Part shown: piece by piece, positions 32,021 to 43,277 of the stretch
Layout: the number at the start of each line of letters is the position of its first letter
Position numbering within the stretch: position 1 is the first letter of the stretch
DNA from: Escherichia phage SKA64
Sequence record: OM362897.1
DNA length: 64,000 nucleotides
Direction: 5' to 3' (one strand)
Notes under the pieces: generated by a model
What the model was told of the DNA's origin: nothing
Seen by the model: only the letters and a program-made list of their open reading frames with translations
Database searches by the model: none
Program-made: the position numbers and the translations under genes

Positions 32021-32524
32021 TTGATGGGTGTAGCAACAATAGCTATCGGAAGAAGCGGTATAGATGAGTGCTATCAAACGGGACTCGTAAAACCTAACGA
32101 ATTTCGTCAAATTTGTGTAAACCATATTGAAAAAGAGATTGCTCTTACTTTAGAGAATATGACCCTCCGAGATAAGCTGGAAATGTTTAAATGTTGGTGT
32201 CTAGGAGAAGATTGGCTTTTAAACCATTTTCAAGAACTTTCTGATAGTAAAGAAAGCTTGTTTGATTGTATAATAGGAATAGCTGGCTCCGATCCTAGCC
32301 TTCTGCACATAACAGAAGAAGAGGCGAAGTTACTGTTCTTAAGTAATTTGTTTAATAAGAAAGCACTGCTTGTTCGTGATTGCAGTGATCTTCTTAATAA
32401 CCCGCTCGCAACGTCTGATCAAATTTTTGTTGACAAAGAGACACTACGTGCGATAGAATACATCTGCAAATATGTGAATGGCGGGAAAGCGGTTCTTAAA
32501 ACATTAACAGAGGAGGAAGAATAG
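32021..32524 (+). CDS. hypothetical protein
   Basis: 167-aa ORF immediately upstream of the HslV-like gene. Confidence 0.35.
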   Translation: MMGVATIAIGRSGIDECYQTGLVKPNEFRQICVNHIEKEIALTLENMTLRDKLEMFKCWCLGEDWLLNHFQELSDSKESLFDCIIGIAGSDPSLLHITEEEAKLLFLSNLFNKKALLVRDCSDLLNNPLATSDQIFVDKETLRAIEYICKYVNGGKAVLKTLTEEEE

Positions 32525-33216
32525 TGACGACAATTATTGCAACCAAAAATAAGATTTTGAGTGACGGTAAGGTAACTTTTGGTGGACGTGTAGATTCTAT
32601 TAATTTCAAAAAGGTCCGAAAAATTGGAGATTACCTTGTAGGTGGTGCTGGTCGTCTGACCTCCGTGCTTTCTTTCTTTCAATGGTTTGAACAAAATCTA
32701 CAGTGCGAAGCAGCACGTGATGCTGTCCCTGGTTTGATGATTCACTCTGATCCAGACAAAGAAGATGAAGAGTTTATTGCACTTGTTGTTCATCCAGACG
32801 GACGTATTTTCCTGCACGAGGGTAACAACCCAACACGTGCATATCCGATTGATGAAGAATATTATGCAGTAGGGAGTGGGTCAGACTTTGCTTTAGCTGC
32901 TCTTGATGCAGGGGCAACACCAGAACAGGCTATGGAAGTAGCTAAAAAGCGAGATGCTTTTTCTGGTGGTGAAACATTTATTGAAGAACAAGACGAGATT
33001 ATTGAATTAACAGACGATGATTTAGAAAACTTCTCCAAAGAAGAATTGATCAATCTTTTGAAATTCGGTAATCCCTACGGTGAAGAAGAACCTCGTAACG
33101 TGGCAGGTAACGAGGCGGATACTGAAGAAAAATCTGTTGCAGAAAACAACTTGACTTCTAAATCTGAAAATATTAATCTCGTAAATGTGGCGGATTTCGA
33201 AGGAACCGCTATTTAA
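32524..33216 (+). CDS. HslV-like proteasome-type peptidase (Ntn hydrolase) with acidic C-terminal extension
   Basis: MTTIIATKN... with Thr at position 2, FKKVRK, GGAG, AVGSGSDFALAA align with E. coli HslV as recalled. GTG start. Confidence 0.6.
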   Translation: MTTIIATKNKILSDGKVTFGGRVDSINFKKVRKIGDYLVGGAGRLTSVLSFFQWFEQNLQCEAARDAVPGLMIHSDPDKEDEEFIALVVHPDGRIFLHEGNNPTRAYPIDEEYYAVGSGSDFALAALDAGATPEQAMEVAKKRDAFSGGETFIEEQDEIIELTDDDLENFSKEELINLLKFGNPYGEEEPRNVAGNEADTEEKSVAENNLTSKSENINLVNVADFEGTAI

Positions 33217-33261
33217 CAAACTGCCCCTTCGGGGGCATTTCTTAAACATAGGAGATTAATA

Positions 33262-33696
33262 ATGTTACAAGTTCCTGCTAAGTTTGTTGAAGGCGCTATC
33301 CACTCTTACCGTCAAACATGTAAGAGGGCAAGAAACTGTTTAGATGGTCTGGTGGCAAAAACCTATACTGTTGAAAAGAAGAAACGTTGGTTTGGCAAAG
33401 ATGTTTACGAAGTTAATATTTTTGGTGAACATAAACTAAACCACGATACTCCTGAAAACATGTTAGAAATATTTCTAAGAGATGACAAAATATCTCCTAT
33501 GGATTACCAACTTTTAAAATTTTATGATTCTTCTTTGGCTATTGATAAGTTTGTTGAAGATATTCTGTCTAGAAAAACAGATAAAAACACTTATCCTCTA
33601 GAAGCTGATCAAATAGGATTATTAAACGAGATTTCATCCTTTAAAGAGTTGGATAATATTACAAAAGAGGAGATTTTAGATGGCATTAGATTATGA
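33262..33696 (+). CDS. hypothetical protein
   Basis: 144-aa ORF. Confidence 0.35.
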   Translation: MLQVPAKFVEGAIHSYRQTCKRARNCLDGLVAKTYTVEKKKRWFGKDVYEVNIFGEHKLNHDTPENMLEIFLRDDKISPMDYQLLKFYDSSLAIDKFVEDILSRKTDKNTYPLEADQIGLLNEISSFKELDNITKEEILDGIRL

Positions 33697-34189
33697 TCGC
33701 CCAACGAGCGATTATTATCCAACACCGCAAAAAGCAATCAATAGTTTGTTTAGTGTTATAGATTTCAAAAATCTAAAGGAAGAAGGTTGGGTTTTTGCAG
33801 AACCTTGCAGAGGTGAAGCTGAAGCGATTTATCGCCATTTTCCTGAAGGTTCAGAATATTGCGAACTTGAAGAAGGTAAAGATTATTTTAGTCATGAATG
33901 GGAAAATCGTCCCGACATTATAATCACAAATCCTCCATTTAAGTTAGCAATGGAGTTCTTGGAAAAGAGCTTAAAAGAGGCGGATGTTTGTATTTATCTT
34001 CTTCGGTTGGGCTTCTTGGAGTCAAAGAAACGACGAGAGTTCCATCAAAAGAATCCACCAACAAACCTTATAGTCCTTTCAGAACGGCCTTCGTTTGTTG
34101 CAGGTGGAACAGATAAGACAGCATACGCTTGGTATGTATACGACCCAAAGAATCGTTTGGGCCTCTCTCAACCATTTTATTTTGTTTAA
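33680..34189 (+). CDS. small N6-adenine DNA methyltransferase-like protein
   Basis: IITNPPF (motif IV) and N-terminal YYPTP. Confidence 0.5.
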   Translation: MALDYDRPTSDYYPTPQKAINSLFSVIDFKNLKEEGWVFAEPCRGEAEAIYRHFPEGSEYCELEEGKDYFSHEWENRPDIIITNPPFKLAMEFLEKSLKEADVCIYLLRLGFLESKKRREFHQKNPPTNLIVLSERPSFVAGGTDKTAYAWYVYDPKNRLGLSQPFYFV

Positions 34190-34877
34190 GGAGTGTGAAC
34201 TATGGGTAAACTAATTATGACAGTGGCTATTGATTTTGATGAAGTAGATGAAAGCCTCAACCTTTCACTTTCTACTGACGTAGATGGCGAAATGGATAAT
34301 ATTGAAGCAGCTACTGCTCTTTTCTTCAAAAAAGCCATTGAAGTTTATGCCGAACATGCTGCAAATCAGGCAGTAGATTACGGTGGTATCGTGCGAGCTT
34401 TAGTTCACTCTACCGAGGGCAATGACTGGGAAGATTAATGGCTTACAATTATTACTGCATTTATGCACATGAAAAGAAAAAAGGTGACACTGGGACTAAC
34501 GTTTATGCGGAGTCCGAATCTCATGCAAAAGAGATTGGTGCTATCCTTTTATCACGCTGGACTGGAAATAATTACAGTGCAGAAGATATGTTTGCAGAAG
34601 TGGATTCTAGAATCCAAGAAGACAACATAACAACTACGTGATATACTTATACTCCCTTTTCGGAGGGAGTATTTTAAGGAGGGATTATGCAGAGCGGAGA
34701 AGAACTTTTAGAGAAACAATTCTCAACGCGTCAACAAGCTTTAAGTTATATGGTTTTTCTAAGCAATCTTGATGTGAATGAGATACTTTTACGGCGCGAA
34801 GGTAATTTCTGGAGCGTTAAATATCATGCAACAAGGTCTGTAATCTACCTGGAAGAGGCGGAATTCTCTTTGGTAGA

Positions 34878-35468
34878 ATGATCCGAGGAGTAGTTATGCG
34901 TTCAACTTTCACTGGCAAAATAAATGCTGGTTTGATTTTTACAGCAGTAAGCATTCTTAGCAAAAAGTTTAAAGTTGTTAACTTACCTGTGTGTGTCGAT
35001 TTCGATCATGTTTTTGATCCTTCGAACCCCACTCGTTGCATAGTAAGGAGTAATGTTGAAAACCCAACAGAAAATCTTTTTTATGTAACAAAACCATCTC
35101 AAAGCATACTTAACCAGGTTGAGGCGAAATTGATACCTAACGGTAAATATTACTCCTTTTTACCTTGTAAGTCGGTTGAAGTAGAGAATAGCAATACTTT
35201 CGCTAATAACTTGTCTGTATTCGTTTTCTTTGTTTCACAGGAAGACGAAACAGATGAAATGGTAGCAACAGTGAGATCACTTTATGACTCTTTAGGGGTT
35301 GTTTATAGTCAACAAGTGTGCGAAAATAATAAAGCCTGTGTAGATTTCATTATCAACGGTATTTGTGTTTGTAGAGTAGAATCTTTTTGGCTGCACGATA
35401 CATATGTGACTGTAGCAGAGGTTATATCTGAACCAAGATTTAGTCATGCGGTTTCGTTAATAATTTGA
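34878..35468 (+). CDS. hypothetical protein
   Basis: 196-aa ORF. Confidence 0.35.
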   Translation: MIRGVVMRSTFTGKINAGLIFTAVSILSKKFKVVNLPVCVDFDHVFDPSNPTRCIVRSNVENPTENLFYVTKPSQSILNQVEAKLIPNGKYYSFLPCKSVEVENSNTFANNLSVFVFFVSQEDETDEMVATVRSLYDSLGVVYSQQVCENNKACVDFIINGICVCRVESFWLHDTYVTVAEVISEPRFSHAVSLII

Positions 35469-35478
35469 GGAGGAAGGA

Positions 35479-35808
35479 ATGGAAATTACTACAGAACAAG
35501 CCCTTATCGATGAGGGTCGTAAAATCTTAGAAAAGTATTTAGGGGAGATTCATAAAACCCCTGGCTATTTGGGTTGGAGAATTGTTGAAGCTGTAGATTT
35601 CCTTCCTCGTAACAGTAAAAACGTCGAAATGCGATCTCTTTTCTTATTAGTAAAGGTGGATGGGGATACGCCTTTTAAAGATGCCGCAGAACATATTGAA
35701 AAAGTTGAAGAGAAAGCTTATGCAGAATTTGCCGATCTTGTTTTAGAACAAGAGATTGAAGGAAAGGTGAATATTTTTATTTTCTTAGATTTTGAGGAGG
35801 ATAAGTGA
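35479..35808 (+). CDS. hypothetical protein
   Basis: 109-aa ORF with RBS ggaggaagg. Confidence 0.35.
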   Translation: MEITTEQALIDEGRKILEKYLGEIHKTPGYLGWRIVEAVDFLPRNSKNVEMRSLFLLVKVDGDTPFKDAAEHIEKVEEKAYAEFADLVLEQEIEGKVNIFIFLDFEEDK

Positions 35809-36548
35809 TCATACACAGAGAAATTACTGTTAAAAGCGATCAAGATCTTTTTATAATTGGAGATCTACACGGTTGTTATAATTTGTATGAAAAAGGAAAG
35901 GCAAAGTTAGGTATCCGAGATACAGATGTGGTTGTATCTCTAGGAGATCTTACTGACCGTGGAAAGCAAAACTTTCGTTGTGTTTTAGAATTTACTCGTA
36001 AACACAATCGCTACGCTATTCGTGGCAATCATGAAGACATGATGATTAAAGGTATGCTGGAAGGAGATCGTAGCTACTACGAGTGTTGGTATCAAAATGG
36101 AGGATATACGGTCTTTGAAGAATGTGGTGAAGAAGGAGCTACAGCCTTAGCAATGATGACAGAAGATTTACCTGTTGTTCTCATTGTTAACTACAGAGGC
36201 ATGAAACTTGCGTTTATTCATGGTGGGTATCCATCTTCTTTGGAATATCTCCCTGTAACAGATATTCCAGAATACATTTCGAAGATGACAAAAACACAGG
36301 AAAACCGTTTTGCTGAAGCACTTATGTGGGACAGAGATATGGTAGACTGTGCTAAAGAGGGAATGAAACTTCCTGTTGTGATGGGTGTGGATTATGTGTT
36401 TCATGGACACTCTTATGTAAAAACACCTATTATCAATGCGAATCGTGTTTATATGGATACTGGATCTGTGTTCAATAATAACTTAACATTTGCTTATTTC
36501 GATATGGACGGTGGTCTTCAATTTTATTCAACTCTTGAGGAGGATTAA
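35805..36548 (+). CDS. Ser/Thr protein phosphatase (lambda-PPase-like metallophosphoesterase)
   Basis: IIGDLHGC, GDLTDRG, GNHEDM motifs. Confidence 0.75.
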   Translation: MIIHREITVKSDQDLFIIGDLHGCYNLYEKGKAKLGIRDTDVVVSLGDLTDRGKQNFRCVLEFTRKHNRYAIRGNHEDMMIKGMLEGDRSYYECWYQNGGYTVFEECGEEGATALAMMTEDLPVVLIVNYRGMKLAFIHGGYPSSLEYLPVTDIPEYISKMTKTQENRFAEALMWDRDMVDCAKEGMKLPVVMGVDYVFHGHSYVKTPIINANRVYMDTGSVFNNNLTFAYFDMDGGLQFYSTLEED

Positions 36549-36863
36549 TGTATAAGATTACAATTATTCAAAGTGTAGGTAATATCCGTAAAGAAGTTAT
36601 CTTAGAAACAGAAGATGTTAATCTTGTTCGTGAGATTGTTCTTAAGGAAGATAACCTGCAAGCTGTAGAATCAGATGCACCGAATCTTATGGTGGATCAA
36701 GAATATTCTGAACTTCGTCGTATTTTTGAAGAGATTCAGAAGAAAGAAACACAACCGACCATAAAACCTTTTGGTCCTTATGATCCGAGCAATCCTAGCA
36801 GTCCTTGGATCATGAGAAATACGGAACCGTATACACCTTTTGAAATTACTTGTTGAGGTGATT

Positions 36864-37445
36864 ATGGCAGAACTGTTCTATACGGGAGTTGGAAGTAGAG
36901 ACATATCCGAAGAAGAGTGGGCTTTGATGGTAGGCATAGGGAAATGGCTTTCAAACCTTGGGTTTAAATTAAGGTCTGGGAAGGCAGAGGGTAGTGATTC
37001 TGCTTTTGAAACAGGTGTCCAAGAGTCTGAAAATCCTACTAACAAGGAGATTTATGTTCCTTGGGAAAATTTCAAAGGTAATCAGATTCCAGGGGATGTT
37101 ATTGTTCTTGCAAAACCAGATACAATGAACTATGCTATCTCTGTGCAATGGATCAAAGATGTTCACCCAGCCTATGAAAAGCTTAAGCAGGGTGCTAGAA
37201 AATTGCACCAACGTAATGTGCATCAAGTGTTAGGTAGAGATTTGGAGAATCCTGCTCCATCATGTTTCTTGTTGGCTTGTGCTAATACTGATAAACATGG
37301 AGATGCAAAAGGTGGAACAGCTACGGCTTGGAAGATAGCTAAAGCCAATAATGTTCCTTGTTTAAATATTCGTGGGAAAACAAAACAAGAGATTTACGAT
37401 TTTCTACGACCTTTGGTAATGAGGGCAATAACAAGTGATTCCTAG
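36864..37445 (+). CDS. DprA/Smf-like (SLOG-type) Rossmann-fold protein
   Basis: YTGVGSRDIS...LRSGKAEGSDSAFETG. ATG 36864 with RBS gaggtg; the track ORF begins at an upstream TTG. Confidence 0.4.
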   Translation: MAELFYTGVGSRDISEEEWALMVGIGKWLSNLGFKLRSGKAEGSDSAFETGVQESENPTNKEIYVPWENFKGNQIPGDVIVLAKPDTMNYAISVQWIKDVHPAYEKLKQGARKLHQRNVHQVLGRDLENPAPSCFLLACANTDKHGDAKGGTATAWKIAKANNVPCLNIRGKTKQEIYDFLRPLVMRAITSDS

Positions 37446-37947
37446 ACGTAAACGTGGTGAACAAAGAACAAACTTGGCAGAAATCTTAGATTACAACATG
37501 GTTAATGATGTGACAAAAGAAATTCTCCCTGTTGTAGAAGATATTCTTCGTAGAGGGTTACGATTCTGCTCGGATCGGGTGCATTTCATGTGGACACATA
37601 AAAGTGACTCCTCTTTGAATTTTTATCCTTTAGACTATACTCTGAACAATACGGAGATGAAAGATATCAACAAATATTTAATGGGATATAAAGATATAAC
37701 CGAAACTGTTCTTGGAGAATTGGCAGAAATCTTGGCTAATGATATCCTTAGAAATATTAATAAGGCTCTTGACAGAAGCCCAGCAGGAGTAGTAGTATCT
37801 TTTGCTGTGCCAGATATGGTTAAATATGAGTCTACAATACCTAATAAAGCTTATGCCTTTCTTCGGAGAGACGTTCGTGGAAATGTGTTGGAGATGGAGT
37901 CAAACTACAAGATTGAGGAGGTTTTATGGCAGAGTTCGGATCAGTAA
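37435..37947 (+). CDS. hypothetical protein
   Basis: 170-aa ORF. Confidence 0.35.
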   Translation: MIPRRKRGEQRTNLAEILDYNMVNDVTKEILPVVEDILRRGLRFCSDRVHFMWTHKSDSSLNFYPLDYTLNNTEMKDINKYLMGYKDITETVLGELAEILANDILRNINKALDRSPAGVVVSFAVPDMVKYESTIPNKAYAFLRRDVRGNVLEMESNYKIEEVLWQSSDQ

Positions 37948-38199
37948 CAAGTTTTGAAAGTAACTTCGTTACCGCTTGGGAAGCTTGGGATGAAATGGGT
38001 GTTGGGGAACTTTATTTTTACAATGTAACACTACGTCCAGAGTATGCTTACCTGGTACCAGAAGGAACAGTTCAAATTGGCATGTATTTGTCTTCTCAAG
38101 ACGGTGTTGTTCAATTTGAGTTTTATTCTAACACAACGGACAACGAATTTACATACCGCGCATTTCATGTCAACATGTCTTTAGGAGAGGAGAAATTTT

Positions 38200-38397
38200 A
38201 TGACGACCAAGTTTAAAACAGTAGAAGAAGCCGTAAAAGCAGCTTATGAGGCTTTAGCGGAAGCAGAACAGTTAGCAGACGAGACTGGTGAAGGTTTCAG
38301 TTTCTCCCCTGAATATGGGATGGGTGGTTATTATGATCCAGAAGATGAAAATGAGAATACTGGAACAAATTGGCATCCATCTTCTTTAAGTTGTTAA
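38200..38397 (+). CDS. hypothetical small acidic protein, C-terminal W-H-x-SS-x-x-C motif
   Basis: Ends ...GTNWHPSSLSC. Confidence 0.35.
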   Translation: MTTKFKTVEEAVKAAYEALAEAEQLADETGEGFSFSPEYGMGGYYDPEDENENTGTNWHPSSLSC

Positions 38398-38635
38398 TAG
38401 GAGGTAAAGTGGGAATCGAAGATATCAAAGGTTATAAACCGCATACCGATGACAAAATTGGTAAAGTGAATGCTATTAAAGATGCTGAAGTTCGATTAGG
38501 ATTAATCTTTGATGCTCTAATGTCTGAATTGTGGGCTGAACTGGATGATTGTGAAGATTTGGAAGAGTCTACCAATATATCCACCCGCCTTGACCAAATT
38601 TCAATAGCAAAGACTAAGTTGAAAGAAGCTTCTAT

Positions 38636-38896
38636 GTGGGCCTGTCGTTCCGTTTTCCAACCAGAGGAGAAATACTAATGAGTTATCGTAATGTTGAAGA
38701 ATTAACTGAAAAAGCCCAAGCTATTATGGCTTTGGTGGACGAACTTACAAAAGAAGCTGAAGATGCTGGTTTTGGTCTTAGTTTAGAAGATGACGCAATC
38801 TGTTTTGAAGATTGGCAATCCTCTTCTTGTTATGGTGAAGGTGATGATGGTTTCGTTGTTAATTCTCAAGGCGTTTGGCACAGTAGTAGCTGTTAA
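38636..38896 (+). CDS. hypothetical small acidic protein, C-terminal GVWHSSSC
   Basis: Ends ...QGVWHSSSC. Paralog-like with the next ORF. Confidence 0.35.
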   Translation: MGLSFRFPTRGEILMSYRNVEELTEKAQAIMALVDELTKEAEDAGFGLSLEDDAICFEDWQSSSCYGEGDDGFVVNSQGVWHSSSC

Positions 38897-38905
38897 GGAG
38901 AGATT

Positions 38906-39178
38906 GTGGAGTCTGAAGGTGAACTGCTGATAAAAAAGAAAGTTAAAGAGATGGAACAAGCACAAAGAAAGTTTCGTAAGGAAATTGAAGAACTTTGTGA
39001 ACAGTTTCAGGAACAAGCTTGGATAGGTGACTACGGTAACGGAGAAACTTATTACCCTACAGGAACGCCAGCCGCAGATCACTATATTGATTTCATTTGT
39101 GAAGATTATGGTGTAGAGTTGGATGAAAATGGTTTAACCACAAGAGGTGTTTGGATCTCTTCTTCCTCAATGTGTTAG
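38906..39178 (+). CDS. hypothetical small acidic protein, C-terminal GVWISSSSMC
   Basis: Ends ...RGVWISSSSMC. Followed by terminator and promoter. Confidence 0.35.
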   Translation: MESEGELLIKKKVKEMEQAQRKFRKEIEELCEQFQEQAWIGDYGNGETYYPTGTPAADHYIDFICEDYGVELDENGLTTRGVWISSSSMC

Positions 39179-39188
39179 TAAATAATAA

Positions 39189-39208
39189 CCCGCTTCGGCG
39201 GGTTTTTT
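39189..39208 (+). terminator. rho-independent terminator
   Basis: CCCGC-TTCG-GCGGG followed by TTTTTT. Confidence 0.6.
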
Positions 39209-40210: not shown

Positions 40211-40607
40211 TATGTGTGGATATCTTTCAGAAAGTTATTTCAAAGTGACGCATGAGGATTTAGAAAAAGCACGATTGAAACTGACAGCTATTATTGAATA
40301 CTCTAATACTGTTGAACACAGATTAAAGACTACTAAAGTATCTGTTCCTTGTTGGTTAGGTTTACGGCATAAAATAATGTCTCAACATGACCATGTTGTT
40401 CGAGAGATGCATGGTTGGTGTTGGTTTCACGATGTGGCTCTGCATTTTGGTTATATTACAGAAGAAGAGCATAGATTCTGTGAACTAACATATCGTATTC
40501 CAACCCTTCACGATTTAGATTTGTGGAAGAAAGCAAACGAGATTTTTCTTACAGAAAGTGATTGGCGTAAAGTTATGGCTTGTCTTGAATGGAGGGGTAA
40601 TGAGTAA
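40194..40607 (+). CDS. hypothetical protein
   Basis: 137-aa ORF. Confidence 0.35.
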   Translation: MKEVINMCGYLSESYFKVTHEDLEKARLKLTAIIEYSNTVEHRLKTTKVSVPCWLGLRHKIMSQHDHVVREMHGWCWFHDVALHFGYITEEEHRFCELTYRIPTLHDLDLWKKANEIFLTESDWRKVMACLEWRGNE

Positions 40608-41283
40608 AACAGTTTTGTCTATGTTTGACGGATCTGGGATCATGGTGTTACGTTATGCCGAAGCAGGTCACAAGTGTTTTTGTGTAAACGCTGATGAAGG
40701 GGATCACGGTAAATACGAGGTTAGGATGGAGCACCCAAACATAACCTATGTGAATGCCTGGATAGATTCTACATTCAACCCTGAAGATCATGGGATACCT
40801 AAACCCGATATTATTTTTGGATTTCCACCTTGTACTATGTTAGCAGGTAGTGGTAGCAAACACGAACGTAGCACAGAGGAATTAGATGAAGCTTTAGCTA
40901 ATATTCGTGTAGTGGAAGCTTTGGGTAACAAATATAATGTTCCTTGGATGATTGAGAACCCAGTAGGTAAACTTTCAACCTTATGGCGTAAACCCGATTT
41001 TTACTTTGATCCTTATGAATATGGTGGGTATTTGTTTGAAGAGGAAGGAAGCTTTCATCCTAAAATGCCTACCCGTGATGGGTATACAAAGAAAACTTGT
41101 ATTTGGCACGGCAATGGTTTTGTTCAACCAGTGAAGAAACCAGTAGATCATATAGGCTGCTTCTGGGGTTGGAAAAGCTTAGGTGGAGCTAGTGCAAAAA
41201 CAAAACAACTTAGATCCCTAACCGCACGTGGTTTTGCTCGTGCCGTGTTTTTGTCTAACAATCTTCTAGATAAGGAGAAATAA
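40600..41283 (+). CDS. DNA cytosine-C5 methyltransferase-like protein (compact)
   Basis: LSMFDGSG (motif I-like), GFPPCT (PC motif), WMIENPVG (ENV-like). ATG 40600 after ggagggg. Confidence 0.45.
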   Translation: MSKTVLSMFDGSGIMVLRYAEAGHKCFCVNADEGDHGKYEVRMEHPNITYVNAWIDSTFNPEDHGIPKPDIIFGFPPCTMLAGSGSKHERSTEELDEALANIRVVEALGNKYNVPWMIENPVGKLSTLWRKPDFYFDPYEYGGYLFEEEGSFHPKMPTRDGYTKKTCIWHGNGFVQPVKKPVDHIGCFWGWKSLGGASAKTKQLRSLTARGFARAVFLSNNLLDKEK

Positions 41284-41979: not shown

Positions 41980-42483
41980 ATGGGAGGAAATATGTTTCAA
42001 GTAGAAATTCATGTGCACAACAGTTGTTCAAATTGCGAGACTTGTGGTTACAATAGTTCAACCATGATCACTATTAGCGGAGACTTAGGAGATGCCAAGT
42101 TTGGCGAAGTCGCAAGCTGCTTCAGCGGAGAGGATGCAGATTGGCATGATATTGCACACTGGTTGGTGAGCAAACTAAAAGAAAAAGAGAAACCATTTCC
42201 TACTCTGCTTGATCGTTCTCTTGTGGAAGATGCAGGTAAAGCATATGCAGACTATGCGTATGCAGACGGGAAATATTTGGAAGATGATAAGGCTAACCAT
42301 TTGCTTTATGTTTACTATGAAGCTGAATCTGCCTACGATAATTATTACAGCATGTCCAACATTCTACGTTTGTTTGCGGAGTTTGATATTTACTTTGAAG
42401 TGAGTTATTCTCAAGACGAAGTGTACGATTTGGATGACGAAGATTATGATGATTATGAGGAGGAAGAATGCCAAGACGATTAA
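41980..42483 (+). CDS. hypothetical acidic protein with CxxC pair
   Basis: 167-aa ORF, CSNCETCG near the N-terminus, very acidic C-terminus. Confidence 0.35.
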   Translation: MGGNMFQVEIHVHNSCSNCETCGYNSSTMITISGDLGDAKFGEVASCFSGEDADWHDIAHWLVSKLKEKEKPFPTLLDRSLVEDAGKAYADYAYADGKYLEDDKANHLLYVYYEAESAYDNYYSMSNILRLFAEFDIYFEVSYSQDEVYDLDDEDYDDYEEEECQDD

Positions 42484-43268
42484 TAGTGATCAGCGGCGCG
42501 GGTCTAAGCGCCGATAGCGGTGTACGTACTTTCCGCACTGACACAGAAAGTGGCAAAGCTTTGTGGGATGAATACGACCTTTCTGAAGTGTGCGACATTT
42601 TCAACTTCCGTGCTGGATACCAACAAGAACAGTGTGTTCCTGGGGCTGTTGGCGGATTAGATGCAGAGGGATACAACCTCTACCGTAAAACTCATGACTT
42701 CTACAATAAACGTCGCGTAGAGATGGATAGTGTAACTCCTAACGCTGCGCATTACCAGATCGCGGAATGGTTCCAAGAGTACGGCTGTGATCGTGTTATC
42801 AACATCACGACAAACGTAGATGATCTTCTGGAACAAGCAGGTGTTGTTCATGAAGATGTTCTACATGTTCACGGCTTCCTGCCTGAAGTGATCGTAGACA
42901 ATAGAATCATCAAAGATGTTGGCTATGCTGCTATCGATGTGGATGATTACAAGTATGTGAAGCCCAATGTAGTGTTCTTTGGGGAGACTGCCCCATTGTA
43001 TAACGATATGTACCACATCTTAGACGGCTTGACGGCTCAAGATATGGTGATTGTAGTGGGTTGCTCTAATCAAGTTATCAATTTTAACTGGGAGCTTTTT
43101 CCTGCTCTTAACATCGGAACAAAAATGGTTGTAGTTAACCCTGGAGTTAATTACGAAGAAACACTTCTCTATGAAGATCGTGGAGTTTTTGTTTACCGAG
43201 AAAAAGCTGCAACAGCCTTCAGCAATGAAGGTTTCATTAAAATGGTCGAAGACCACTTAAACAAATAA
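42468..43268 (+). CDS. Sir2-like (sirtuin family) NAD-dependent protein
   Basis: ISGAGLSADSGVRTFR near the N-terminus resembles the sirtuin NAD-binding signature. Confidence 0.55.
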   Translation: MPRRLIVISGAGLSADSGVRTFRTDTESGKALWDEYDLSEVCDIFNFRAGYQQEQCVPGAVGGLDAEGYNLYRKTHDFYNKRRVEMDSVTPNAAHYQIAEWFQEYGCDRVINITTNVDDLLEQAGVVHEDVLHVHGFLPEVIVDNRIIKDVGYAAIDVDDYKYVKPNVVFFGETAPLYNDMYHILDGLTAQDMVIVVGCSNQVINFNWELFPALNIGTKMVVVNPGVNYEETLLYEDRGVFVYREKAATAFSNEGFIKMVEDHLNK

Positions 43269-43277
43269 ACCACTCAA

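Follow-up and report, generated by a model that had tools for sequence, protein, structure and literature searches.

A DprA-like gene in a packed phage transcription unit

Does a small phage protein that carries the name of a recombination mediator act in DNA recombination, or does it belong to the conflict between phage and host? The question is raised by an open reading frame in the window, that is, the whole stretch of 64,000 nucleotides analyzed here from Escherichia phage SKA64 (OM362897.1), a phAPEC8-like E. coli myovirus. A preliminary description had placed a stand-alone DprA/Smf-like (SLOG-type) protein at this locus, followed by small genes without assigned function. Its coordinates proved exact, the frame running from an ATG to a TAG stop, and the next gene downstream (170 aa, PHROG_8569) is indeed one without assigned function (Table 1). 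The Ser/Thr phosphatase gene that was said to precede it is nearby, one gene further upstream, whereas the directly preceding gene is a 102-aa ORF with no assigned function.

Annotated proteins with 100% identity to this one are on deposit, and it equals phAPEC8 gp185; the phAPEC8 locus, 99.4% identical to the one studied here, bears the RefSeq label "DprA-like DNA recombination-mediator protein". The gene is already catalogued and annotated, and nothing is new for the window itself. In a library of 1.84 billion proteins, the family to which it belongs comprises 5,947 clusters at the 50% identity level. It is among the larger families of phage proteins that lack an experimentally tested function, and no experimental work on any member was found in the literature searched.

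The Shine-Dalgarno sequence shares nucleotides with the TGA (36854-36856) at which the upstream ORF stops. A longer frame from a TTG at 36840 is disfavored because homologues in the alignment begin at the ATG. The transcription unit holding the gene also contains a DNA methyltransferase gene, the phosphatase gene, and small genes without assigned function, and phAPEC8 carries a terminator annotation as well. Given the overlap between the gene and the GTG start of the PHROG_8569 gene, translational coupling of the two is likely; the latter gene is kept in close relatives only, according to the neighborhood comparison. The window also includes a SIR2 gene and, no more than 3-4 kb away from the DprA-like gene, two genes for DNA methyltransferases.

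TABLE 1 Features of the locus, in positions of the window
Feature	Coordinates	Strand	Evidence or remark
Transcription unit holding the gene	33222..39204	+	~17 tightly packed genes between two terminator-like hairpins
Terminator-like hairpin, 5' side	33222-33237		
DNA methyltransferase gene	33680-34189		
Ser/Thr phosphatase gene	35805..36548		
Upstream 102-aa ORF	36548..36856		
Shine-Dalgarno GAGGTG	36855..36860	+	3 nt 5' of ATG; direct sequence reading
CDS, 193-aa single-domain SLOG/DprA-like protein	36864..37445	+	ORF, PHROG_768, phAPEC8 annotation, AF2
GVGSR, residues 8-12	36885..36899	+	Loop after strand 1; DprA motif 1 (G-S/T/A-R)
LRSGKAEGSD, residues 36-45	36969..36998	+	Strand 2 and its loop; DprA SG-A-G-ID loop
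IYVPW, residues 63-67	37050..37064	+	End of strand 3
LHQRNVHQ, residues 114-121	37203..37226	+	Helix with DprA motif 2 (F/L/Y-x-x-R-N)
GGTATA, residues 150-155	37311..37328	+	Nucleotide-loop counterpart of DprA SGSL-TA and LOG PGGxGTxxE
Downstream 170-aa gene, PHROG_8569	37435..37947	+	GTG start overlaps the CDS by 11 nt
Terminator-like hairpin, 3' side	39187-39204		
DNA methyltransferase gene	40558-41283		
SIR2 gene	42468-43271		

A SLOG fold whose nearest characterized relative is DprA

Structure prediction agreed with the earlier assignment. The AF2 model (pLDDT 94.9) consists of one domain, as "stand-alone" had implied, with the three-layer alpha/beta Rossmannoid fold of the SLOG superfamily; it superposes on several SLOG families, and its top Foldseek matches are DprA. 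A BFVD search returned many phage homologues (TM about 0.8), longer multidomain proteins among them.

In sequence searches, the protein matched PHROG_768 over nearly its whole length (E=2e-62, 211 bits, residues 2-182 against profile positions 2-180 of 191). A tblastn search of 50,697 phage records gave matches in 1,442, so that about 3% of the phage genomes deposited carry the family; the matching phages include those of Pseudomonas, Vibrio, Aeromonas, and roseobacters as well as T4-like phages. Taken with the cluster count given above, these matches place the resemblance far outside what chance would produce. The family is almost exclusive to phages; a scan of MAG contigs with a single peptide pattern, which is no census, gave 6 loci and agrees with a mostly phage-borne distribution.

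Similarity to DprA at the sequence level is limited to residues about 6-53 in profile comparisons. The protein scored 12.7 bits (E=0.073, residues 9-52 alone) against a gathering threshold of 29.6 bits for Pfam PF02481. Among 39 family members, 23 matched this profile at E<0.01, over the N-terminal ~48 residues only and mostly below threshold, and a single one (P0120, 30.5 bits) reached it. A profile search of the PDB reached DprA weakly (E=0.013, N-terminus only), while a single-protein PDB sequence search returned chance matches only (selenide water dikinase, E about 1), the NCBIfam search gave no match, and the PADLOC search gave only a marginal match to ShosA (PDLC03961, E=0.02, residues 9-47). 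The LOG profile PF03641 matched none of the 39 members at E≤0.01; the YAcAr/YspA profile PF10686 matched neither the protein at E≤10 nor the 39 members at E≤0.01.

The protein is therefore a compact single-domain member of the SLOG superfamily, with the Rossmann-fold domain of DprA/Smf as its nearest characterized relative. The order of the conserved loops is the same as in DprA/Smf (PF02481; H. pylori 4LJK/4LJR, S. pneumoniae 3UQZ, R. palustris 3MAJ), and the SG-A-G-D loop and the GGT/SGS loop are common to both. In DprA, ssDNA is bound through G-S/T/A-R after strand 1 and F/L/Y-x-x-R-N/D in the helix before strand 4 (Wang et al. 2014, PMC3950713), and both of these pocket motifs are found here as G-S-R and [L/F/M]-x-x-R-N. 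However, DprA/Smf proteins carry a SAM and/or a C-terminal DML1/winged-helix domain, whereas the phage protein has neither and measures 193 aa against the 374 aa of E. coli Smf. Between strand 3 and the R-N helix the phage protein has a rebuilt segment, in which a strand comes before a helix rather than after it (judged from the sequences and the secondary structure of the model). In addition, the phage family has extra invariant residues (R37, W67, H115, Q121, and N168, with H101 nearly invariant), is almost only phage-borne, and has ADP-ribose enzymes rather than competence or recombination genes as partners. Since neither its Pfam score, nor its domain composition (no SAM or C-terminal domain), nor its context, which lacks recombination genes, is that of a genuine DprA, the automated label "DNA recombination mediator" given by RefSeq is unsupported by the present analyses.

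Conserved residues and a putative pocket

An alignment of the protein with 38 relatives that are 37-74% identical to it (alignment A1, 39 members) contains 23 invariant positions. The preliminary description had likened residues 8-15 (GVGSRDIS) and 38-51 (SGKAEGSDSAFETG) to the core of DprA/Smf, and this likeness held: both the G-S/T/A-R and the SG-A-G-D loops are matched, and a third motif was found at L114-H115-Q116-R117-N118. The first loop is aligned by HMMER to the DprA chains 3maj and 3uqz, and VGSR also occurs in E. coli Smf, in which FPRRNRII is the by-eye counterpart of the third motif. In alignment A1, G10 and R12 are invariant and S11 is kept in at least 90% of sequences; R37, S38, G39, A41, G43, and D45 are invariant in the second loop, W67 (with Y64 and P66 nearly so) after strand 3, H115, R117, N118, and Q121 in the helix, and G150, G151, T152, and T154 in the nucleotide loop. 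W67 is a family-specific residue that also occurs in CAjan gp82, a YAcAr protein ("PAPW"). The C-terminal helix (174-191) is not conserved. Conserved residues of the kind described for the SLOG superfamily in PMC9503650 are present as G10, R12, W67, H115, R117, N118, Q121, G150, G151, T152, and T154.

Mapped from the published HpDprA structure rather than from model coordinates, the G-S-R and SG-A-G-D loops, the Y/P/W residues, the L-H-x-R-N-x-x-Q helix, and the GGT loop would together line an invariant pocket. This pocket may hold one nucleobase or an ADP-ribose-linked nucleotide. In DprA the same conserved motifs serve for ssDNA, and alone they do not point to an ADP-ribose ligand.

A pocket of this kind could also belong to an enzyme of the nucleotide pool, i.e., a LOG-like N-glycosidase converting AMP or (d)NMP to base and ribose-5-phosphate. 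The invariant polar residues H115, R117, N118, Q121, and D45 and the nearly invariant H101 look enzyme-like, RNR, glutaredoxin, PhoH, dCMP deaminase, and ThyX are the commonest neighbors of the family, and an argument of this type has been made in the EVADES preprint, which predicts AMP hydrolysis for the YAcAr protein ORF83. Yet the LOG motif PGGxGTxxE is replaced by K149-G-G-T-A-T-A-W-K157, which has neither the Pro nor the Glu, and residue 157 varies in alignment A1; as noted above, PF03641 did not match any member. We rejected membership in the LOG-type hydrolases because the catalytic motif is missing, and a LOG-like activity is improbable. Against LOG, Moco-carrier, and TIGR00725-type SLOGs (2IZ5, 1RCU, 5WQ3) more generally, the protein differs in lacking this motif and in showing no family match at the sequence level.

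Fusions and neighbors point to ADP-ribose metabolism

Evidence on function came mainly from the company that the family keeps. Among the best 150 of 5,947 clusters, the SLOG domain is fused to NADAR in P0137 and P0235 (whose NADAR halves are 40% identical to each other), to DUF4326 in P0212, and to an A1S_2505 domain (PHROG_2072) in P0119 and P0188, a PHROG_9995 domain is a further partner, and the ~1,480-aa proteins P0121 and P0124 combine the family SLOG with a YAcAr SLOG, an LDcluster4-like SLOG, and NADAR. Only about 11-13 of these 150 clusters contain fusion proteins, 4 of them with NADAR, and this minority share counts against a link to ADP-ribose. P0137 sits on a 1.2-kb contig without gene context.

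Neighborhoods were compared at 80 IMG/VR loci, which form 37 groups. A Macro gene (Pfam Macro E=5.5e-9) was found at 12 loci, in 6 groups by HMM or 5 by BLAST clustering, at a median of 438 bp upstream; NadV and PRPP synthetase were neighbors in 3-4 of the 37 groups, and DUF4326 occurred within 8 kb in 3 of 37. The role in phage-host conflict proposed at the outset gains from these Macro neighbors and from the fusions to NADAR and DUF4326. It is mainly in Pakpunavirus-like and related Pseudomonas-type contigs that Macro and NadV adjoin the SLOG gene, so inherited synteny, as opposed to independent association, may account for some of these cases. No operon partner is conserved across the lineages of the 37 groups. 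The commonest neighbors overall serve general nucleotide metabolism, which also counts against the ADP-ribose link.

With phAPEC8 as proxy for the phage of the window, we found a NADAR (gp010, 1.8e-35), a DUF4326 protein (gp037, 1.2e-21), and a Macro protein (gp050, best PDB matches SCO6735 and TARG1) in the same genome. These and SIR2 are separate genes, and the first three do not adjoin the SLOG gene. A further count against the link is that the immediate neighbors in the window (the 102-aa ORF, the phosphatase, methyltransferases, and small genes) include no ADP-ribose enzymes.

The same data bear on the literal reading of the gene name, in which the protein would be a minimal DprA-type mediator or ssDNA protector that loads host RecA or coats ssDNA for recombination-dependent replication. 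Its resemblance to DprA is genuine in both invariant ssDNA motifs, in the Foldseek ranking, in the Pfam matches, and in the names given by PHROGs and RefSeq. The H. pylori DprA domain alone (residues 5-217) binds ssDNA with a Kd of about 31 nM (PMC3950713), and Iyer et al. 2021 (PMC7824862) proposed that in jumbo phages the DprA/Smf copies serve as an additional ssDNA-binding protein. Nevertheless, we consider this reading quite unlikely: the similarity covers only the N-terminal stretch, the accessory domains are missing, no recombinase, SSB, or annealase occurs within 8 kb in any of the 37 groups or is annotated anywhere in the phAPEC8 genome, and the fusion partners are ADP-ribose enzymes rather than recombination proteins. 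T4-like phages, in which the family also occurs, already own the recombinase and mediator UvsX/UvsY. In S. pneumoniae, DprA dimerizes and binds RecA via its C-terminal helix; the variability of the corresponding helix in the phage family is a weak argument against a conserved RecA interface.

The methyltransferase genes near the locus raise the prospect of restriction alleviation, in which the protein would bind incoming or replicating phage DNA, protect it against nucleases, and stimulate the orphan methyltransferases of the phage; for HpDprA, both inhibition of restriction enzymes and stimulation of methyltransferases are reported (PMC3597690). Methyltransferases are neighbors in 6 groups. 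However, these are mostly related rV5/phAPEC8-type phages, so that shared synteny is the probable cause, and in the majority of the other lineages a methyltransferase is missing from the vicinity. The proposal would also leave the fusions to NADAR and DUF4326 unexplained, and we regard it as very improbable.

Overall, the association pattern points toward a role against NAD-based immunity rather than in DNA recombination. The reading that we favor, and to which we give about an even chance, is that the protein belongs, as a module that binds a nucleotide or a base, to the NAD+/ADP-ribose counter-defense toolkit of the phage. Expressed from an early or middle operon, it would act as a ligand-recognition, possibly catalytic, module and, jointly with ADP-ribose-removing enzymes, would neutralize the products of host NAD+-consuming immunity. 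Two types of ligand may be envisaged: (i) a soluble ADP-ribose-derived compound is a tentative possibility, in which case the protein would bind cADPR-type signals or cleave their N-glycosidic bond, in line with Iyer et al. 2022, and the absence of the LOG-type catalytic Glu counts against hydrolysis; (ii) ssDNA, either ADP-ribosylated or naked, held in the manner of DprA, is somewhat more doubtful.

A more specific proposal, which we hold to be unlikely, is that the DprA-like SLOG is the ssDNA or modified-base recognition partner of phage ADP-ribosyl-DNA hydrolases, or itself excises the modified base. DarT1 and DarT2 both modify ssDNA (PMC11543638), and phage NADARs, one of them from Vequintavirinae, strip ADP-ribose from DNA and defeat DarTG1 (PMC11257639). 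The phage NADAR and Macro enzymes would lack the ssDNA-binding extension of DarG1-type antitoxins, and a SLOG partner could supply the recognition: the base-insertion pocket would hold ssDNA or a flipped-out ADP-ribosylated G or T and then pass it to NADAR or Macro. If this were true, PHROG_768 would be a widespread and unrecognized accessory factor against DarT, i.e., against DNA ADP-ribosylation. More broadly, should the association with NADAR, Macro, and DUF4326 be functional, the family would be a missing piece in the answer of large virulent phages to NAD+-consuming or DNA-ADP-ribosylating immunity (DarTG, Thoeris-type signaling).

Comparison with other SLOG systems

Stand-alone phage SLOGs are predicted to be part of an NAD+/ADP-ribose network by Iyer et al. 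2022 (PMC9503650). As described there and in PMC7824862, the SLOGs of this network resemble the present family in being stand-alone, in being enriched in larger phages, in lying beside or being fused to Macro, NADAR, or DUF4326, and in sharing a genome with SIR2, Macro, and NADAR, as in phAPEC8. At the family level, the four NADAR fusions and the DUF4326 fusion listed above are associations of the kind described for that network. In contrast, the present family scores to DprA, not to YpsA/YAcAr, in Pfam.

Among defense-related SLOGs, the sensor of ThsA (7UXS) differs in that the phage protein has no fused SIR2 or TIR effector and no family match to it at the sequence level. The marginal PADLOC match suggests another possibility, namely, that the protein mimics the labile DprA-like antitoxin ShosA (ShosTA, PDB 8ZVA) and keeps the toxin ShosT silent during infection. 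ShosA, however, is a protein of ~300 aa beside the PRTase toxin ShosT that dimerizes and binds RecA, through regions that are absent or variable here, and no ShosT-like PRTase toxin adjoins the gene in the window or the phAPEC8 annotation. Because the similarity is generic, being no greater than to other SLOG/DprA proteins, and the family is spread over phages of many hosts, far wider than one defense system, we find the mimicry hardly credible.

A further parallel is YAcAr/YspA (PF10686), likewise a small stand-alone phage SLOG. One representative, DruSM1 ORF83, of the CAjan gp82 type, scored as anti-Avs3 in a knockout screen, a phenotype that belongs to ORF83 and not to the present family. 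The two differ in Pfam family (CAjan gp82 matches PF10686 at 2e-18), an hhalign comparison of alignment A1 with gp82 gave a probability of 7%, and ORF83-type proteins, at ~130 aa, are without the 66-123 insert. They nevertheless have the same motif order (GGR / LRHG-A-G-D / PW / RN / GG-GT), with an Arg before the SG/HG loop and a Trp after strand 3 in common, and SLOGs of both families occur together in the polyproteins P0121 and P0124.

Identity and distribution of the SLOG-domain gene

The coordinates that the preliminary description had assigned to the gene proved exact to the base, and its two peptides correspond to residues 8-15 (GVGSRDIS) and 38-51 (SGKAEGSDSAFETG) of the encoded protein. 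Its sole slip concerns the Ser/Thr phosphatase gene (35805..36548) that it has the SLOG gene follow: a 102-aa ORF separates the two. A longer ORF starting at a TTG (36840), produced by mechanical listing, was rejected because all homologues begin at the ATG. The protein is gp185 of phage phAPEC8, labeled "DprA-like DNA recombination-mediator protein" in RefSeq, and nepoznato and vB_EcoM_EP57 are examples of deposited phages with an identical copy. Over the 6 kb around the gene, identity to E. coli myoviruses of the phAPEC8 type (Phapecoctavirus, Stephanstirmvirinae, about 150 kb) amounts to 99.2-99.6%.

Along its whole length, the protein fits the PHROG_768 profile (E=2e-62). Using tblastn, relatives were found in 1,442 of 50,697 phage records, covering rV5-like, Pakpunavirus, T4-like, N4-like, and jumbo phages of Klebsiella, Pseudomonas, Escherichia, Aeromonas, Vibrio, Acinetobacter, rhizobia, and roseobacters, and searching 1.84 billion representative proteins with a profile gave 5,947 clusters (4,865 at E<=1e-10). 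A scan of 185,579 species genomes, limited to one pattern, yielded only six MAG contigs; therefore, the family is essentially phage-borne. In an alignment of 39 members (37-74% identity to gp185), 23 positions are invariant: G10, R12, R37, S38, G39, A41, G43, D45, G51, and W67 in the N-terminal part and H115, R117, N118, Q121, G124, S133, G150, G151, T152, T154, A155, A159, and N168 in the remainder. The original observation is real and its interpretation supported, although it is not novel, since gene and family are already annotated and an in silico description of their likely network exists. PHROG_768 is a sizeable family with a putative role in that network.

Coordinates of the features discussed (window positions unless an accession or locus is given)
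Feature	Location	Strand	Remarks
SLOG-domain gene, intact, 193 codons + stop	36864..37445	+	ORF call and sequence reading
Ribosome-binding site GAGGTG	36855-36860	+	Overlaps stop codon of upstream 102-aa ORF
ORF 3' of SLOG gene	GTG start at 37435	+	Shares 11 nt with SLOG gene end
Terminator-like hairpins	33222-33237; 39187-39204		Bound the gene block
HslV-family peptidase	32524-33216	+	Directly 5' of operon
Two orphan DNA methyltransferases	33680-34189; 40558-41283	+	Flank operon
196-aa ORF, "histidyl tRNA synthetase" (PHROG/RefSeq)	34878-35468	+	PHROG_4806, 3e-64
Three small acidic tandem ORFs	38200-38397; 38678-38896 (ORF listed from 38636); 38906-39178	+	
SIR2-family protein, 266 aa	42468-43271	+	NAD+-using domain; about 5 kb 3' of SLOG gene
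phAPEC8 gp010, gp037, gp050 (listed jointly)	NC_020079.1 41952-42494; 32048-32416; 22208-22681	+; -; -	
CAjan gp82, 130-aa YAcAr SLOG	NC_028776.1 6867-7259	+	Labeled "GTP-binding domain"
A1S_2505/PHROG_2072 domain genes	L085 5695-6162; L087 10583-10975		Phage loci, near SLOG gene

A DprA-like SLOG domain

With the 39-member alignment as input, AlphaFold2 modeled gp185 as one alpha/beta domain (pLDDT 94.9, pTM 0.90). In a Foldseek search of the PDB, H. pylori DprA filled the nine best places (E=2e-5), followed by Moco-carrier protein (MCP), S. pneumoniae DprA, ThsA, ShosA, YpsA, and LOG. The predicted structure places the protein in the SLOG superfamily and not in an unrelated Rossmann family; on this model, DprA, MCP, and LOG cannot be separated by fold alone. 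ShosA is a DprA-like antitoxin with ssDNA and RecA binding, but the likeness of gp185 to it is generic, and mimicry of ShosA is hardly plausible.

What defines the DprA domain is a pair of motifs in the ssDNA pocket, G-S/T/A-R and F/L/Y-x-x-R-N/D, with which the LOG motif PGGxGTxxE has been contrasted (Wang et al., PMC3950713). Both DprA motifs occur in gp185 and are invariant (G10-S11-R12 and L114-H115-Q116-R117-N118), the second lying on helix 109-123 directly ahead of strand 135-139. The protein has no LOG motif, the segment reading KGGTATAWK without the Glu, which makes LOG-like hydrolysis unlikely. By eye, VVGSR, ITSGLARGID, FPRRNRII, and SGSLVTA of E. coli Smf resemble GVGSR, LRSGKAEGSD, LHQRNVHQ, and GGTATA of gp185. 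However, Pfam PF02481 scores 12.7 bits, under its 29.6 cut-off, and in the relatives its match is confined to the first ~48 residues and never extends further. Unlike DprA, gp185 lacks a SAM domain and C-terminal domains, the segment from strand 3 to the R-N helix is arranged otherwise (as judged from sequence and from the secondary structure of the model), and the C-terminal helix shows no conservation. Therefore, we class gp185 with the SLOG domains, as DprA-like but not a DprA. A single domain with both DprA motifs and a SLOG fold agrees with its earlier description as a stand-alone DprA/Smf-like protein, and we infer that this phage-specific domain has a conserved DprA-type SLOG pocket of single-nucleotide size.

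Domain fusions and the ADP-ribose network

The fusions are the most informative evidence on the family. Longer proteins make up 11-13 of the best 150 clusters (of 5,947) and include NADAR+SLOG (P0137 and P0235, whose NADAR halves share only 40% identity and hence do not reflect a single recent event), DUF4326+SLOG (P0212), PHROG_9995+SLOG (P0206, P0207), DUF7831+SLOG (P0257), and SLOG with a C-terminal A1S_2505 (PHROG_2072) domain of ~140 aa (P0119, P0188). Two proteins of about 1,480 aa (P0121, P0124) combine a gp185-type SLOG, a YAcAr SLOG, an LDcluster4-like SLOG, and NADAR. In other loci, some partners are free genes no more than 8 kb away from the SLOG gene (DUF4326 in 3 groups of loci, A1S_2505-like in 2, PHROG_9995-like in 1). 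The A1S_2505 domain carries the motif VFVFGSN-x-x-G-x-HGAG-A…YA(L/I)PT, and from this pattern it looks like a further LOG/SLOG-type Rossmannoid.

In phAPEC8, NADAR, DUF4326, and Macro are separate genes, all outside the window: gp010 (NADAR, Pfam 1.8e-35), gp037 (DUF4326, 1.2e-21), and gp050 (Macro, closest PDB matches SCO6735 and TARG1). The RefSeq names of the latter two, "ribonucleotide reductase NrdA-like" and "phosphatase," look wrong. The Vequintavirinae NADAR of Bas60 is among the phage NADARs that strip ADP-ribose from DNA and overcome DarTG1, and the Bas60 cloning primer encodes MRITDKYV (PMC11257639), resembling the gp010 N-terminus MRITDEYV. ssDNA is the substrate modified by DarT1 and DarT2, and DarG1-type NADARs have an extension with a presumed role in ssDNA binding (PMC11543638), a feature missing from most phage NADARs (PMC11257639).

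Enrichment of viral SLOG domains in larger phages has been reported, along with their co-occurrence with and fusion to Macro, NADAR, and DUF4326; the domains are predicted to sense or cleave ADP-ribose (ADPr)-derived immune signals, though stressed to be experimentally uncharacterized (Iyer et al. 2022, PMC9503650). For DruSM1 ORF83, another small phage SLOG, a knockout screen scored activity against Avs type III. The R89, N90, T112, and D114 described for ORF83 all recur at the same positions in CAjan gp82, which is therefore the likely ORF83 orthologue; this ORF83-type protein is a Pfam YAcAr, whereas gp185 belongs to a different family.

Genomic neighborhoods and inferred role

We sampled 80 IMG/VR loci, called and clustered their ORFs, and collapsed the loci to 37 groups by the identity of their SLOG proteins. 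No single partner was conserved throughout the 37 groups. Recurrent neighbors were PhoH (11 groups, often immediately upstream), RNR alpha/beta (7), methyltransferase, HslV, ClpP-like protease, Ser/Thr phosphatase, and dCMP deaminase (6 each), glutaredoxin (5), NadV and PRPP synthetase (3-4), as well as ThyX and PolA. The same pattern is seen in how RefSeq annotates Ro1, a Pakpunavirus, Aeromonas phage 31, and a roseophage. A Macro-domain gene (Pfam Macro 5.5e-9) lay near the SLOG gene, at a median of 438 bp upstream, in 12 of the 80 loci (5 groups by clustering, 6 by HMM search). Together with the NADAR and DUF4326 fusions, these Macro neighbors support the proposed link to phage-host conflict.

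Recombinase, annealase, and SSB genes were absent near the SLOG gene in all 80 loci and from the annotation of the entire phAPEC8 genome. Jumbo-phage DprA/Smf copies have been suggested as an additional ssDNA-binding protein (Iyer et al. 2021, PMC7824862). That the annotated name, recombination mediator, gives the true function seems improbable to us, and no other serious reading is weaker. Behind it come LOG-like hydrolysis, restriction alleviation, and ShosA mimicry, in that order.

In evolution, the domain has been partnered with enzymes that process ADP-ribose and with genes for NAD+ salvage. There is perhaps an even chance that gp185 would recognize, and maybe cleave, a nucleobase or ADPr-linked ligand and so contribute to the phage answer to NAD+-dependent immunity. 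Two kinds of ligand fit the data about equally well: (i) a soluble ADPr derivative, a candidate because of the published prediction, or (ii) ADP-ribosylated or naked ssDNA, a candidate because the DprA motifs are intact and DNA is now known as a substrate of NADAR and TARG1-like Macro domains.

In the window, the gene lies within a block of about 17 close-packed plus-strand genes with terminator-like hairpins at both ends. Genes for thymidylate synthase, RNR, glutaredoxin, dTDP-rhamnose, PhoH, and HslV precede the block, and a SIR2 gene lies downstream (phAPEC8 copy: Pfam PF02146, 5.9e-20). Orphan methyltransferase genes flank the operon; restriction alleviation by gp185 is nonetheless very unlikely.

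Elsewhere, phAPEC8 has one more methyltransferase and one N6-adenine methyltransferase annotated. The "histidyl tRNA synthetase" label in the operon is doubtful, since 196 aa is far below HisRS length; a second phAPEC8 gene, gp042, bears the same label. Just 3' of the SLOG gene, in the same operon, the three acidic ORFs look like a paralogous family from their sequences, with about 30% mutual identity and a shared C-terminal ending W-x-SS-(x)-C (…NWHPSSLSC, …VWHSSSC, and …VWISSSSMC).
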